NCBI GenBank assembly: GCA_964518475.1 | Contig: CAZFGR010000007.1 | Span: 12,350-76,349 of the forward strand | Direction of reading: 5' to 3' | Source: an uncultured Nitrososphaerota archaeon | GTDB taxonomy: Archaea; Asgardarchaeota; Njordarchaeia; Njordarchaeales; Njordarchaeaceae | Length of the DNA stretch: 64,000 nt | Shown here: piece after piece, positions 45,850 to 60,194 of the stretch | Layout: each line of letters starts with the position of its first letter | Position numbering within the stretch: the stretch's first letter is position 1 | Translations under genes and position numbers: made by a program | The notes under the pieces: model-generated | What the model saw: the letters and a program-made list of their open reading frames with translations, nothing else | The model's database searches: none | Told to the model about the DNA's origin: nothing

Positions 45850-46638
45850 ATGAATTGCGATAAGAATACGGTCATGAATATTGCGGGCTGGAAAGATTAT
45901 TCATTAGTAGATGTCTTAGGTTATCCTTCATTTACGGTCTGGTTCAGCTTTTGTAATTTTAAATGCCCATGGTGCCAAAACTGGCCTGTTGTTAGTGGAG
46001 TTGAAAATAAAGAGGTTAGCGTTGGAGAACTTATTGAAATCATTGAGGAATCCGCAATTTTAGTTGATTTTCTTCACGTGACTGGCGGAGAGCCTACTTT
46101 GCAAAGTTCTGCATTAAAGGCTCTCTACGCATGTGTTAGGGAAAAGGATATTCTTAAGAATTCATTAAATACGAATGGTTCTCACCCAGAAGTGATTAGA
46201 GAGCTAGCAACGAAGGGTTTACTGGATCATATCGCTATTGATGTAAAAGCCCCTCTTTATAATCCTAGCCTATATGCTAGAGTGATTGGCTTTGAAGTTG
46301 CTGGAGACGTTCCTGATAAAGTTAGAGAAAGTATAATAATTTCTCTTGAGAAAATAGATTTTGTAGAGCTGAGAACTACCTTTGTTCCTTCCCTATTAAG
46401 TATTGACGATTTGGTGCAGATTGCTCAAGAATTAAAGGATTTGGGTTGTGGTGATTATTGCTATTATGTGATACAGCAGTTTAATCCTAGCGATACTATA
46501 CGTGATGCTACATATAGACAAGCTAAGAGAGTATTAGAGAGAGACCTCATAACCATTGCCAAGAAGGTTAAAAAACAAAGTACATTGAAGAATGTTTATA
46601 TCCGGACACTGGAGGGTGGGACTAAGGTTATTGAGTAA
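45850..46638 (+). CDS. nrdG: Anaerobic RNR activating radical SAM enzyme (NrdG2-type)
   Basis: SLVD, CNFKCPWCQN, TGGEPTLQ, NTNGS, DVKAP, ELRTT and QQF motifs. Confidence 0.85.
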   Translation: MNCDKNTVMNIAGWKDYSLVDVLGYPSFTVWFSFCNFKCPWCQNWPVVSGVENKEVSVGELIEIIEESAILVDFLHVTGGEPTLQSSALKALYACVREKDILKNSLNTNGSHPEVIRELATKGLLDHIAIDVKAPLYNPSLYARVIGFEVAGDVPDKVRESIIISLEKIDFVELRTTFVPSLLSIDDLVQIAQELKDLGCGDYCYYVIQQFNPSDTIRDATYRQAKRVLERDLITIAKKVKKQSTLKNVYIRTLEGGTKVIE

Positions 46639-47101
46639 GTAATTGAATTATTTTCTCGAACAAAAGATTAATGTTTTCTCCAGTTAGGGCAGATGTCTTT
46701 ATGAATTCTTTTACGGGCAATCCGGCTTTTTCTAGTGCCTCTCGAACTTCTTCTTCAGAGACTTGTTCTCCAAGGTCTTTCTTATTACCTACGACAACTA
46801 CATGTGAGGTATTCTTTACGTATTGTTGAAGCAGATTCGACCATTTCTGCAGACTTTCTAAAGAGGCTTTATTCGATATATCGAATACTAAAACGATAAC
46901 TCTTGCCCCGATTAGGTATTGGGGGATATATGAACTAAATTTTGGTTGACCGCTTAGATCCCATATGATCAGGTTACTTTTCTGAGGGATTTTGAAGACT
47001 TCGACACCAAGTGTTGAATTCTCAGAGAGTTCCATGCCAAGATATTTTCTGATAATAGATGTTTTCCCCACCCCAGCATCGCCGATAAATACTATCTTCA
47101 T
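46628..47101 (-). CDS. Rab/Ras-like small GTPase
   Basis: G1 GDAGVGKT, G2 STLG, G3 WDLSGQ, G4 NKKD, G5 TSA. Confidence 0.92.
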   Translation of the reverse strand: MKIVFIGDAGVGKTSIIRKYLGMELSENSTLGVEVFKIPQKSNLIIWDLSGQPKFSSYIPQYLIGARVIVLVFDISNKASLESLQKWSNLLQQYVKNTSHVVVVGNKKDLGEQVSEEEVREALEKAGLPVKEFIKTSALTGENINLLFEKIIQLLTQ

Positions 47102-52602: not shown

Positions 52603-53511
52603 TTATGCGATTTCAGCTTCCAATAATCTCGAGATCTCATTAGATATCCATTCTAGATCTCTAAGAGCAATTCCTAGCTTGGCTTTTCTACTTATCATTC
52701 CGACCAATAAATACTCGCTAGTCAATGATTTGATGACCATTATACCCTTCTCTGCTAGGATAAGAATTCGCCTGATTGGTTTTTTACCAAAACCTTCTAT
52801 GTACTTAGAACTCGTAGCAAGAACTACTGAAGCCGCAGCAGCAACACTGGCCTGATTAATCTCCATAGGTTTTGGAGAGAATAGAACTACAGGATCGCCT
52901 TCCTTAGTAGCTATCAAAATAGCATTTATCCACTTATCAATATTAAATAGTGAATTAATTATTCCACTTGCCCGCAGTTTAATAGTATCCTCAATAATTC
53001 TAGTAGTAAGCACTGCCGTCATTTCCTCGGGAAGAGCTTCTTGCGGCTTAGTAGGTTCAATAGCCGAGATAATGGATTCTAACTCGCGTTTTAGTGACAC
53101 CGCTTCCTCTGAGATCGCTTCCTTTGGTTTCAATTGTTCCACAACCTGTTCTGCTTCGGAAATAGCTGCTTGTGCATATACCTCCGTTCTCGGCAATTCT
53201 ATCTTCGCTACGGTTTTGACTCTGATTATTCCTTCCTTACGGCACTTATCTAGAATCTCTATAACGTCTTCTGGAGATACCACATAACCGTCTTCTCTCA
53301 TTCTTAGTGCTATTTCCCATACGTTCTTTTCTCCATCAATATACTTCAGTATTGCTTTAACAGCTTCTCTCCTTGCCCCTTTGTATAGAGATGCGATTAG
53401 GTTTATGCGCTCATTCAATTCTTTCTGAGTGGCCCATCTAGAAACCTCGTACACTCTCATAAATTTTTCTTCATACATTGATCTTAGTAGCTCAACGCTA
53501 TTATTTGCCAA
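52603..53511 (-). CDS. wHTH-like N-domain + linker + Roadblock/LC7 domain
   Basis: C-terminal 'INAILIATKEGDPV..AAAASVVLATS..LLVGM..AKLGIALRDL' and N-terminal 'ILKYIDGEKNVWEIA..EGIIR'. Confidence 0.75.
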   Translation of the reverse strand: MANNSVELLRSMYEEKFMRVYEVSRWATQKELNERINLIASLYKGARREAVKAILKYIDGEKNVWEIALRMREDGYVVSPEDVIEILDKCRKEGIIRVKTVAKIELPRTEVYAQAAISEAEQVVEQLKPKEAISEEAVSLKRELESIISAIEPTKPQEALPEEMTAVLTTRIIEDTIKLRASGIINSLFNIDKWINAILIATKEGDPVVLFSPKPMEINQASVAAAASVVLATSSKYIEGFGKKPIRRILILAEKGIMVIKSLTSEYLLVGMISRKAKLGIALRDLEWISNEISRLLEAEIA

Positions 53512-53560
53512 TACTATTCACCAATTAAATGAATATTGTAAACAATCATAAAAAAAAGTA

Positions 53561-54115
53561 TCACGGATCGTAGAGTGTTTTTAAAAGCGCATAAGCCAGA
53601 TCTAAATCTTCTTGTTTAAGAAATCTACTACGTAGTATTGATAATAATTCTTTTTCGCTCAATTTTCCCTTTTTATAATCTAGGAAATAGCTCCTAGCCA
53701 CCTCTAAACCAGTTAATACATCGCTAAGCCTAGTAGCCATTTTTGTAATTGGATCCCTTGCTCTTCCACCAAATAACTCTCTCACTATTTTCTCAAGATG
53801 ATCTATTCCCGGGCAGATTAAGTTTTTATCCTCATCTGTAAAGATTAATCGCTTACCAGCAAATTTTCTCCAATTGAGATAGTATTCTCTCTTAGTTACA
53901 ATTTCGTATGGTGCTAACTTAAAATCAGAAGAAGGTGGCTTACGCATCTCAAACGTTTCCACAATTTCTCCTATTATATCTTCATACATCTGTCTCTCGT
54001 TTTCATCCTCAACGATTATTACTAAATGTTCCTTCTCCACTATTATGGAGAAGAGAGCATAAGCTAGTGTCCTAGGATCTTTTTTCTGAATAATTTCTAG
54101 ATACGTTGTTAGCAA
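53561..54115 (-). CDS. Hypothetical protein, possible DENN-core-like
   Basis: 'LAYALFSIIVEKEHLVIIVED..IIGEIVETF..LIFTDEDKN' followed by helices. TTG at 54115 after GGGGGT. Confidence 0.5.
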   Translation of the reverse strand: MLTTYLEIIQKKDPRTLAYALFSIIVEKEHLVIIVEDENERQMYEDIIGEIVETFEMRKPPSSDFKLAPYEIVTKREYYLNWRKFAGKRLIFTDEDKNLICPGIDHLEKIVRELFGGRARDPITKMATRLSDVLTGLEVARSYFLDYKKGKLSEKELLSILRSRFLKQEDLDLAYALLKTLYDP

Positions 54116-54291
54116 TAGTACCCCCCAAGTATTAAAGATCTTTTGCACACATCTATGTTTTGCTTTTTGCGAACCCATCATAGCCTAATATGTAGTCATG
54201 AATATTTACTCAAGGAGGAGAGGTATCTAGTATTTTGGAGACACATTGTTATAGATAAAAACTTATTGTCATACCGTAGTAATAGGAACTT

Positions 54292-55112: not shown

Positions 55113-56669
55113 ATGATGAATTATAAAGAGGGACTTCTTTATAAGGAGATAACCCCCGAAGTACTGGATCAATATTCCAGCATAGTTCGGCAACAACTCG
55201 AGCCTTTCTTTGAGCCGAGATCAATAGCAGTTATAGGCGCGTCTAGAGATGTTAATTCTCCTGGATGGGTAATTTTCAAGAACTTACTTGAAAATAAAGC
55301 GAAGGGTTGGTTAAAAGCTAATGTGTACGGGGTAAATATTAAAGGCGGAGAGTTATTTGGGCAACTCCTCTATCGTTCTATTCTAGAGGTTCCAGATGAT
55401 GTGGATCATGCCGTCATAGTTATTCCTGCTAAGTATGTGCCGAGTGCTTTAGAAGAATGTGGTAAGAAGAATGTGAAAGTTGCCAGCATTATAAGTGCTG
55501 GTTTCTCTGAGATAGGAAACGTAGAGCTTGAAAAACGCGTAGTAGATATCGCTAAGAATTACGGGATAAGAATTATTGGGCCCAATGGTTTGGGAGTTTT
55601 CGACGCATACAGTGGCGTTGATACGATGTTTCTTCCCTATAATAAGCCGCTAAATGGTGAAGAAATACTAGCCACTCCGAGGCCTAAGAAGGGCTATATA
55701 ATGTTTATTTCCCAGAGCGGAGCTCTTGGTGTTTCTGTACTTGATTACATGTACGGAGAGGGTATTGGCATAAGTAAATTCATAAGCTATGGCAATAAAG
55801 TTGACGTTGACGAAGTAGATATGCTCCTATATGCTCTAAAAGACGATAGCGTACGAGTCGTAATGATTTATATAGAAGGAATCAAAGGAGACGGAAGGCC
55901 CTTCGTAAAAATTGGAAAAGAATTCTCAAAACACAAACCTATTGTAGTGCTCAAGGGTGGTCGTACGAGAGCAGGAGCGAGAGCTGCTATGAGTCATACT
56001 GCTTCGCTCGCTGGTAATGTGAGAATATACCAAGTAGCGTTTGAGACTATGGGGGCTATTGTAGCTGATGACTTAGTAGAGTTCCTAGACGTTACAAAGG
56101 CGCTTGCTTTCCAACCTCCTGCTCAGGGAGAAAACATAGCAATTGTTACTAATGGGGGCGGTGCTGGCATCTTAGCAGCGGATAAAGCTGAAAAGGTGCG
56201 TCTTAATGTAATCCCTACGCCAGAAAAACTCTTAGAAAAACTGAAAAAGGCGCAAGAAGAGGATAAGATTCCATCTGTTGCAACGTTCTCTAACCCAATT
56301 GATCTTAGCGGGAGTGCATTTAATGAATCGTACACCGCCGCAGTGGAAGCTGTTATGGAAGATGACAATATTCACGCTGTCCTCATAATAGGTCTGCACC
56401 ACGTCCCATTGTTGACATCTAGTTTCGTAGACGAGATTGCTAAGATCGTTAAGAAATATAAGAAACCTGTAGTTGCTGTAGATATCGGTGGGGCTGACAT
56501 GGCTAATTGGGTTCGCGATAGATTCGATTCTCATGGCATTCCTGCATATCCTACTCCTGAGAGAGGTATAGTTGCTCTGAAGGCTCTGGTAAAGTATGGT
56601 CTATGGTTGAAGAAAGAGGGTGTTCTAGAGGAGTACTTAGAGAGATGGCGGCCTCCAGCAACTTCATAA
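55113..56669 (+). CDS. acdA: ADP-forming acetate/acyl-CoA ligase alpha subunit
   Basis: SIAVIGAS, SAGFSE, IIGPN, SQSGA, SHTASLAG (phospho-His) and NPIDL motifs. Confidence 0.92.
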   Translation: MMNYKEGLLYKEITPEVLDQYSSIVRQQLEPFFEPRSIAVIGASRDVNSPGWVIFKNLLENKAKGWLKANVYGVNIKGGELFGQLLYRSILEVPDDVDHAVIVIPAKYVPSALEECGKKNVKVASIISAGFSEIGNVELEKRVVDIAKNYGIRIIGPNGLGVFDAYSGVDTMFLPYNKPLNGEEILATPRPKKGYIMFISQSGALGVSVLDYMYGEGIGISKFISYGNKVDVDEVDMLLYALKDDSVRVVMIYIEGIKGDGRPFVKIGKEFSKHKPIVVLKGGRTRAGARAAMSHTASLAGNVRIYQVAFETMGAIVADDLVEFLDVTKALAFQPPAQGENIAIVTNGGGAGILAADKAEKVRLNVIPTPEKLLEKLKKAQEEDKIPSVATFSNPIDLSGSAFNESYTAAVEAVMEDDNIHAVLIIGLHHVPLLTSSFVDEIAKIVKKYKKPVVAVDIGGADMANWVRDRFDSHGIPAYPTPERGIVALKALVKYGLWLKKEGVLEEYLERWRPPATS

Positions 56670-58614: not shown

Positions 58615-59739
58615 ATGTTGGTAAAAATGTTTGACAAAATCTTAACAGAATTCAAGTATTTCTTTGGACAAGAGCCGATAAAAGAGGAAAATAAGATTAT
58701 AGTATCCCTGGGCCCCCCAACAAAGAGATTTAACTTAACTTTTAGGTTCGAGGAGAACTGTATTATTGTGGATAACATTTTACCAGAAATCACTGAGGAT
58801 CTATTTCATTTGTTGAAAGAATACTTACCATCGAATTCTCATAATGCAGAACTCTTCTTACAGGATAGATCACTTTGTCTTAAGATCTCTCGCTATAAAG
58901 AAGATGATGCGGTACTAAAAGACTGCTTAAACATTATCAAAAGAATTTACGAAGTAGCTACCGAAAAGCTTCCACATTTAACATGGCGGACGTTGGGTGA
59001 AATGAGACTAAAAATACTGAACGAAGAAGTTAGTATTTTGTCTCCTGATTTCCTAGAGCCGATACGAACGGGATGGAGAGCAGAATTAGTTGTTGTCCTT
59101 CCGCGAGATGATAAATGGTTCAGATCCACACTAGGACTTGATAATTTAGATCTTCCTCTTCTCTCATATATAGATCAATCCGAAGTGTATGCTTTTGAGC
59201 CACATGAGAATGGATCTCTAGTTCCAGTGAACTTGTCTGAGATAATTGAGGAAATCAAACAACTACTTGATTCAACGGGTCTTTGGCGAATAGAGAGAGT
59301 TAACGATGTCATAGAGATGGTATCGAATCCAGAAATTATTGCCCGAATTCTATCAACTCTTAAAATGCTGAAAAACGACTTACCGTTCCCCCCTTCTCTC
59401 ATTGGCACTTCTCAACGAGTCTCTAGAGAGACTTTAGATAGGATAATAACTGTGTTAGAGAACGCATACGAGAAGTTAAGCAAGATAAGGAATGTGGATC
59501 GCTTTTTTTATTTAAAAATCGTAACGAGGCTTGCTGTATTATTCGCTAGAAACATCATCCAGAGAGGAGGAGCAGGAGGAGTGTTAGTATCTAACGTTAG
59601 AAAAGTCTCTAAGCTAGGCGCGGGAAAAGCGGTATACATCGGCAAGGAGGAATTAAAGTACTTAGAACTAGGAGATCGCGTTCTTGTAAGTGTGATAGAG
59701 GAAGACGGTAAAAGGAAGATAATTATCGAGCCTATCTAA
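58615..59739 (+). CDS. Hypothetical protein with C-terminal AbrB/SpoVT-like domain
   Basis: C-terminus 'VRKVSKLGAGKAVYIGKEELKYLELGDRVLVSV..KIIIEPI'. Confidence 0.6.
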   Translation: MLVKMFDKILTEFKYFFGQEPIKEENKIIVSLGPPTKRFNLTFRFEENCIIVDNILPEITEDLFHLLKEYLPSNSHNAELFLQDRSLCLKISRYKEDDAVLKDCLNIIKRIYEVATEKLPHLTWRTLGEMRLKILNEEVSILSPDFLEPIRTGWRAELVVVLPRDDKWFRSTLGLDNLDLPLLSYIDQSEVYAFEPHENGSLVPVNLSEIIEEIKQLLDSTGLWRIERVNDVIEMVSNPEIIARILSTLKMLKNDLPFPPSLIGTSQRVSRETLDRIITVLENAYEKLSKIRNVDRFFYLKIVTRLAVLFARNIIQRGGAGGVLVSNVRKVSKLGAGKAVYIGKEELKYLELGDRVLVSVIEEDGKRKIIIEPI

Positions 59740-60194
59740 CTAGGAGGCCTCCGAGATAAAATACTTTTAAGCTTCTCGATAGCTCTATTTAAATCCCTCA
59801 TTAAAATGCCTAATTTAGCACCTTCATTCGTAATGACTGCTAAAATATGATCTTCCCCTATCAGCCGAAGAAGAATATATTTATTAACTGTCTTAATAGC
59901 GACGTAATCAACATGTTCTCCTGCCATGTCTAAGGCGTTTCTCTCCGACGTAGCAAATATAGCTGCTATAGCAGCAGCTATTTTTGCCTCCTCCCTAAAG
60001 AATTCGGGTGGGTAACTAGCTACTGGAAAACCCTCTGGAGTCGCTATTAAAGCGCCCGCTATTCTTTGACTTGAAGAAACAAGATCTTTAAGTACTTTTA
60101 GAACCTTATCCGCCATTTCGCTTATCGCTGACTCTCCTATTAATGCTGATAATATTTCATCTCTATCTATAATTTCACTCATTAGGTTCACCAA
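59736..60194 (-). CDS. Roadblock/LC7 domain protein
   Basis: IAGALIATPEGFPVAS, IAAAIAAIFATSER and AKLGILMRDL motifs. Confidence 0.9.
   Translation of the reverse strand: MVNLMSEIIDRDEILSALIGESAISEMADKVLKVLKDLVSSSQRIAGALIATPEGFPVASYPPEFFREEAKIAAAIAAIFATSERNALDMAGEHVDYVAIKTVNKYILLRLIGEDHILAVITNEGAKLGILMRDLNRAIEKLKSILSRRPPS

Follow-up and report, generated by a model that had tools for sequence, protein, structure and literature searches.

Gene layout at the locus

Positions 52603–54181 of the window (the whole 64,000-nucleotide stretch of Njordarchaeales DNA analysed here) are occupied by two open reading frames on the minus strand, 49 bp apart and hereafter called B and A (Table 1). This arrangement agrees with the first-pass annotation of the locus, all of whose quoted motifs were found in the two proteins. 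The reading frame of B is open as far as 54181, but the orthologues all start at the position corresponding to the TTG at 54115, which has a G-run immediately upstream; within the spacer, the GGTGA lies 8 nt before the TTG start of A. Orthologues of A carry the NCBI label ‘roadblock/LC7 domain-containing protein’, and near-identical cluster members of B are labelled ‘hypothetical protein’.

Table 1. Genes, protein regions and spacer of the A-B pair, in window coordinates.
Feature	Position	Strand	Description
Gene B	53561..54115	(-)	184-aa DENN-like protein
B residues 1-116	53768..54115	(-)	alpha/beta core
B residues 76-103	53807..53890	(-)	top-conservation patch, EY78..W82..G87.RLIF..ED..P
B residues 122-182	53570..53752	(-)	three-helix tail, aligned to dDENN region of DENN modules
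B/A spacer, 49 bp	53512..53560	(-)	T-run after B stop; GGTGA
Gene A	52603..53511	(-)	302-aa winged-helix / linker / Roadblock fusion
A residues 1-105	53197..53511	(-)	N-terminal helix and PqqD/HTH_47-like winged helix
A residues 106-175	52987..53196	(-)	A/E/P-rich linker, modelled as disordered
A residues 176-302	52606..52986	(-)	Roadblock/LC7 (MglB-like) domain

Domain composition of protein A

An AlphaFold2 model of A, with 13 orthologues as input, comprised a well-modelled N-terminal domain (residues ~10–100, pLDDT ~88), a disordered A/E/P-rich linker (~105–175, pLDDT <50), the length of which varies, and a C-terminal alpha/beta domain (~176–302, pLDDT ~80). The C-terminal domain matched Roadblock3 of Promethearchaeum (PDB 9jue) with a Foldseek E of 2e-8, and Roadblock matches filled the lists in structure searches with the whole model. 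Going by its modelled alpha/beta fold, this domain is a Roadblock beyond reasonable doubt, as had been proposed at first pass, joined to the rest of the protein by the A/E/P-rich linker. By sequence, A is a divergent member of the Roadblock/LC7 family, which at 14.3 bits (E 0.036) falls below the gathering score of 23 for Pfam Robl_LC7 (PF03259). It differs in this from MglB, LAMTOR and Asgard Roadblock proteins (PDB 9jue, 3t1r, 2zl1), to whose single-domain architecture it adds an N-terminal winged helix and a long linker.

The secondary-structure elements of the N-terminal domain follow the order of a winged helix, with a long helix and a strand in front. Sequence searches returned FUR, HTH_47, PadR, MCM_WH and TrmB, all of them non-significant matches to generic winged-helix families; Pfam PqqD gave no match to the domain, and its profile retrieved nothing from all PDB sequences, with no NPRL2 chain up to an E of 10. 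Structure searches with an ESM Atlas model of residues 1–105 found HTH_47, PqqD, TrmB and Fur clusters only (TM 0.55–0.68), and residues 11–105 resemble the PqqD/RiPP-recognition-element and HTH_47 winged helices in fold (TM 0.58–0.65 against the PqqD cluster and 0.53–0.64 against the HTH_47 cluster). The domain had initially been described as NPRL2-like. However, Pfam NPR2 matched none of 11 orthologues of A at E up to 10, and A lacks a longin domain, the defining feature of NPRL2, its C-terminal domain being a Roadblock. With no match to NPRL2 or NPR2 and no longin domain, the resemblance is unsupported, and what is left are generic winged helices of the PqqD/HTH_47/Fur type, an outcome that the first-pass annotation had itself listed as speaking against its proposal.

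Fold and relationships of protein B

Protein B, modelled from a 35-sequence alignment, gave a confident prediction (pLDDT 93.2, pTM 0.88) in which the core has three strands (residues 31–35, 70–74 and 89–92) with helices on the flanks and the tail is formed by long helices. The core aligned structurally to the cDENN of DENND1A/B, FLCN, SMCR8 and C9orf72, and the top nine matches among solved structures were all DENN modules, each spanning the whole model. FLCN ranked first in Foldseek, in agreement with the other fold searches, but with an E of 0.27; the rmsd to eukaryotic DENN modules was around 5–7 Å, and the fold-match scores lie within the range common for unrelated models, so that the argument for a DENN fold rests on the uniformity of the top matches and their whole-length coverage. 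Among predicted structures, the closest to B were two unnamed Asgard clusters of 283–289 aa (TM 0.66–0.70).

Profile searches added no family assignment: Pfam, including DENN (PF02141) and Folliculin, matched none of 35 B-family members, and NCBIfam matched neither protein of the pair. With hhalign, the B profile did not match FLCN-like Helarchaeota proteins, which carry Pfam Folliculin and near-threshold DENN matches, and its comparison with a six-sequence Asgard DENN-fold alignment produced only a trivial overlap in which residues of the metagenomic protein P0019 stood on both sides. Pfam DENN itself gave one sub-threshold match over 400 Asgard genomes and is therefore useless for DENN-like proteins of this phylum. 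A 15-bit PADLOC match to WYL was taken as chance. The cDENN-like character first ascribed to B is suggested by whole-length structural matches but not by sequence or profile similarity to DENN families; the accompanying remark that the longin half is missing was borne out, as the 184-aa protein begins directly with the core and contains no longin (uDENN) domain. Compared with DENND1A/B (a Rab35 GEF), FLCN-FNIP, C9orf72-SMCR8 and DENND10, B is without longin/uDENN and has three strands only; it shares no sequence similarity with eukaryotic DENN modules, and a GEF or GAP role for it is putative.

Were B unrelated to DENN, it could be a lineage-specific alpha/beta domain (degenerate RecA/ASCE-like) with a helical tail, possibly related to bacterial proteins of ~250 aa with DUF1889, and the pair would serve another process, such as control of peptide uptake. 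We regard this as rather unlikely. RecA-like structures matched only residues ~10–110, in contrast to the whole-model coverage by all nine leading DENN modules; the best predicted-structure matches were Asgard and not the bacterial cluster (TM 0.70 vs 0.46); hmmscan detected DUF1889, to which Atlas features had pointed, in none of the 35 family members; and Walker motifs are absent from the conserved columns. We lean, by a modest degree, towards B being a true relative of the DENN fold.

P0019 and P0021 (403 aa; the latter verified as an uninterrupted open reading frame), both B-family proteins from metagenomes, are fusions in which the N-terminal 190 residues form the B domain and the C-terminal halves match residues 128–347 of a Njordarchaeales protein of 351 aa whose N-terminus is longin-like (BLASTP E 1e-25 and 4e-27; locus L051). 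The same C-terminal module matched a 307-aa protein (locus L091) over a cDENN-like segment (phmmer E 7e-7) and, weakly, the FLCN-like Helarchaeota proteins (E 1.6e-4). Fusion to a DENN-fold module implies one of two things: B is itself a DENN-like module, the second in these proteins and very divergent, or it is a different domain working alongside DENN-fold domains; in the first case, the tandem would recall the DENN-DENN pairs FLCN-FNIP or C9orf72-SMCR8. In another metagenomic protein, P0016 (373 aa), the B domain is followed at the C-terminus by a hemerythrin HHE cation-binding domain (E 4.9e-19), a typical sensor, which suggests a sensor-coupled variant. Family f2 encodes, at L051 and L063 (genomes G007 and G013), proteins of ~350 aa that combine a longin-like N-terminus with a C-terminal module resembling the DENN fold; they have weak Pfam Longin and Fuz_longin_1 matches, and their genes follow that of a 252-aa multi-pass membrane protein; used as a query, the protein was not found in the genus of the window.

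Distribution and genomic context of the pair

When 1.84 billion representative proteins were searched exhaustively with an HMMER profile, the B family was found in only 27 clusters; word-indexed homology searches yielded one non-self cluster each for A and B. Among 400 sampled Asgard genomes, B was present in 12 of the 14 Njordarchaeales genomes (G000–G002, G004–G008 and G010–G013), with one weak match elsewhere. A profile of the A N-domain matched strongly (E 1e-15 to 1e-44) in the same 12 genomes and, in the rest of the phylum, gave weak matches to other winged helices only. Neither the A N-domain nor B was found in the other two genomes, G003 and G009 (66% and 77% complete), and a search of genome contigs with a single protein as query found no related loci.

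The two genes adjoin each other at 10 loci, with either of them coming first. In family f2, A precedes B with a gap of 9–12 nt or a 4-nt overlap, including paralogous second pairs in G012 and G013; B precedes A in the window and in G002; the genes are convergent in G001 and lie on separate contigs in G004, G005 and G006. That the genes have stayed adjacent while their order changed points to a functional link between A and B. Contigs with distant B homologues were mostly too short to hold neighbouring genes.

Where B stands apart from A, it is repeatedly found beside genes of oligopeptide/dipeptide ABC transporters, encoding an OppD/F-type ATPase with oligo_HPY, a BPD_transp_1 permease and an SBP_bac_5 binding protein (L003, L004 and L006, of G004, G006 and G005, respectively; L049 and L052, the contigs of P0012 and P0013), and once beside a large S8 protease. 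This proximity to Opp-type genes may reflect a functional link to peptide uptake. Directly before B in the f3-type lineage is a gene for a conserved protein of ~105 aa (L012/L053 of the G008 lineage, 2202–2516; L047, 1273–1590), which is 51% identical between two contigs, has no Pfam match and is presumably gelsolin-like from the look of its sequence; it is in turn preceded by a conserved protein of ~440 aa. Homologues of the window gene at 55113–56669 (+), which from the look of its sequence may encode an ADP-forming acetyl-CoA synthetase or a CoA-binding protein, adjoin A or the A-B pair in several genomes of the order (L015, L017, L018 and L041), probably an ancestral neighbourhood.

Predicted A-B complex

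Prediction of the A-B complex returned a median score of 0.84, against 0.00 for the best of 3 controls. Of 80 solved complexes, 58 passed the mark set for such scores, as did 2 of 110 mismatched pairs, counts that hold only roughly here because our own alignments of A and B were used. At least 98% of contacts agreed between runs, with a partner pLDDT of at least 85, and since we know of no solved complex of this kind, it seems unlikely that the high score derives from a memorised one. On the strength of these models, we consider it likely that A and B bind each other.

The predicted interface on A is on the winged-helix domain (residues 4–35 and 91–103), not the Roadblock domain. Contributing to it are the N-terminal helix, S24 and W26 of a conserved SxW motif, R91 and G94 where helix 3 ends, and the wing strand (R97 and V98 to 103); S24, W26, R91, G94, R97 and V98 are conserved residues of this putative docking site. 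On B, the interface falls on residues 76–103, with A 97–101 placed against B 89–92 and A 98–100 contacting B 90–92 in the manner of strand pairing. Interface columns of B are more conserved than the rest of the protein (0.52 vs 0.36), a value reached by 0 of 20000 permutations, and a weaker trend was seen in the N-domain of A (0.54 vs 0.46, p about 0.065). The predicted capture of B, by strand pairing on the wing, resembles the way in which recognition elements take up leader peptides; the ligand of A would, however, be a folded protein rather than a peptide, and an additional N-terminal helix (A residues 2–17) would take part in the contact.

The position of the interface bears on two further explanations. 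The first-pass annotation had envisaged possible proto-GATOR/Ragulator/FLCN parts, with an NPRL2-like protein fused to a Roadblock and a DENN partner whose missing longin half could come in trans; on this reading, the Roadblock would supply that half. Adjacent genes do encode Roadblock and DENN-like folds, and NPRL2-like longin proteins exist elsewhere in Asgard archaea, but B is predicted to contact the winged helix and not the Roadblock, and the NPRL2-like component is contradicted by the searches and the domain content of A described above; we consider this proposal essentially refuted and its chance of being right very slight. Alternatively, A could act as a transcription factor that binds DNA through its winged helix and uses its Roadblock domain for sensing or dimerisation, an architecture comparable to that of IclR-type regulators with wHTH and GAF-like domains, and B could be a modulator that binds the wing and the recognition helix at its end and so switches DNA binding off or on. 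The N-domain of A is basic and the predicted interface with B covers the wing, both of which would fit such a regulator, though we judge it an unlikely description of the pair.

Small GTPases and the Asgard Roadblock-DENN operon

An operon encoding a Roadblock protein (LAMTOR1-like), a Rab-like/MglA-like small GTPase and a DENN-domain protein has been predicted in Asgard archaea (Liu, Makarova et al., bioRxiv 10.1101/2020.10.19.343400; Nature 2021), and its canonical form at L091 comprises a tandem Roadblock of 333 aa, the 307-aa DENN-fold protein and an MglA-like GTPase of 187 aa. Here, too, a Roadblock gene lies beside a DENN-fold gene, a likeness that holds only if B counts as DENN-fold, and for this reason GTPase regulation is presumed for A and B. 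The pair differs from the operon in having no GTPase gene, in the single Roadblock with N-terminal winged helix that replaces the tandem Roadblock, and in its confinement to Njordarchaeales. The DENN-fold family of the operon has no real hhalign match to the 184-aa B, yet is fused to it in P0019 and P0021.

No small GTPase gene adjoins the pair in the window or at L019, L021, L022, L040 and L041, and at one locus a GPN-loop GTPase is encoded two genes away. Of the GTPase-regulatory complex suggested at first pass, the binding of the two proteins is supported by prediction, but a linked GTPase gene is absent and the regulation of a GTPase is something that we infer. By analogy with the operon, the module may regulate a small GTPase, a prospect that we place just short of an even chance. 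The genome of the window has ~10 Ras-superfamily genes and six further Roadblock genes. Within the window, 46628–47101 (-) encodes a 157-aa Ras-family small GTPase (Pfam Ras E 1e-30) at 5.5 kb from the pair, 59736–60194 (-) a stand-alone Roadblock of 152 aa that is not adjacent to it (Robl_LC7 E 7e-9) and 13459–15330 (-) a 623-aa HEAT/ARM-repeat protein (Pfam Adaptin_N E 3.8e-30). One of the six further Roadblock genes belongs to a two-gene operon, a 139-aa Roadblock followed by a 170-aa Ras/Rab-like GTPase, which is located downstream of threonyl-tRNA synthetase on contig 5 of this genome (G000; L055, 5196–6132) and has no DENN-like neighbour; the Roadblock-linked GTPase is at G000:C5:19234–19689. 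The canonical DENN-fold protein of L091, used as a single query, was not found in the genome of the window, where a match with E 0.0033 and internal stops was taken as spurious.

A proposed two-subunit signalling module

Since A and B occur together and are predicted to bind each other, the pair is probably a variant, specific to this lineage, of the Asgard modules already known for GTPase regulation and not a relative of NPRL2/GATOR. We propose, with about equal weight for and against, that A and B form a two-subunit signalling module specific to Njordarchaeales, in which A tethers the DENN-like B to a small GTPase bound by the Roadblock. MglB, Ragulator and Asgard Roadblock domains dimerise and hold small GTPases. 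In our model, the tether would consist of the Roadblock/MglB-like end of A, a flexible linker of ~70 residues and the PqqD-like winged helix, which, together with the helix in front of it, would capture B by pairing wing strand 97–101 with the edge strand of the B core (89–92). B would be a minimal, longin-less protein whose fold comes nearest to that of unnamed Asgard proteins and of the cDENN+dDENN module in eukaryotic regulators of Rab, Rag and Arf GTPases. On the pattern of MglB, Ragulator and the Asgard operon, a small GTPase would be engaged at the Roadblock end of A, with B acting on that GTPase or on its regulators; the likeliest job of B would be that of a DENN-like regulator, a GEF or GAP co-factor, brought to the Roadblock-bound GTPase. 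On this model, A-B would be a divergent, split variant of the published Roadblock-DENN-GTPase module. Its folds, co-occurrence, operon structure, interface and fusion of B to a canonical Asgard DENN-fold domain come from prediction and comparison, whereas any GTPase partner and any GEF or GAP activity are what we infer.

A more speculative version, which we think improbable, makes the pair a minimal nutrient-signalling switch, in which B, which recurs beside oligopeptide ABC-transporter genes in several lineages, would strand-pair onto the PqqD-like winged helix in Njordarchaeales and thereby be recruited to a GTPase-holding Roadblock platform. If true, it would be an archaeal functional counterpart of amino-acid sensing by FLCN/Ragulator, built on a way of tethering that is not known from eukaryotes.

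The general theme is known, as Asgard DENN proteins, NPRL2-like longins and the Roadblock-GTPase-DENN operon have been in print since 2020/21. What appear to be new are the unannotated B family, essentially of Njordarchaeales with a few metagenomic relatives, its fusion to a canonical DENN-fold domain, the winged-helix/Roadblock fusion as a dedicated partner of B and, in the predicted complex, docking via the wing strand. The regulation of Rab, Rag and Arf GTPases in eukaryotes is presumed to have been built from Asgard Roadblock, longin and DENN proteins. We know of no archaeal DENN-like protein with a known partner or activity, and the pair offers a small and tractable case, in which a 184-aa DENN-like protein has a confident model and a residue-level prediction of binding to a Roadblock-bearing partner, and natural fusions link a family of ‘hypothetical proteins’ to the published Asgard DENN-fold family. 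Should the link to a GTPase prove false, the pair would be a warning that a weak match to the DENN fold should not be taken for trafficking machinery of the eukaryotic type; should it prove true, it would show that DENN-like modules can work without their longin half, recruited via a winged-helix adaptor.
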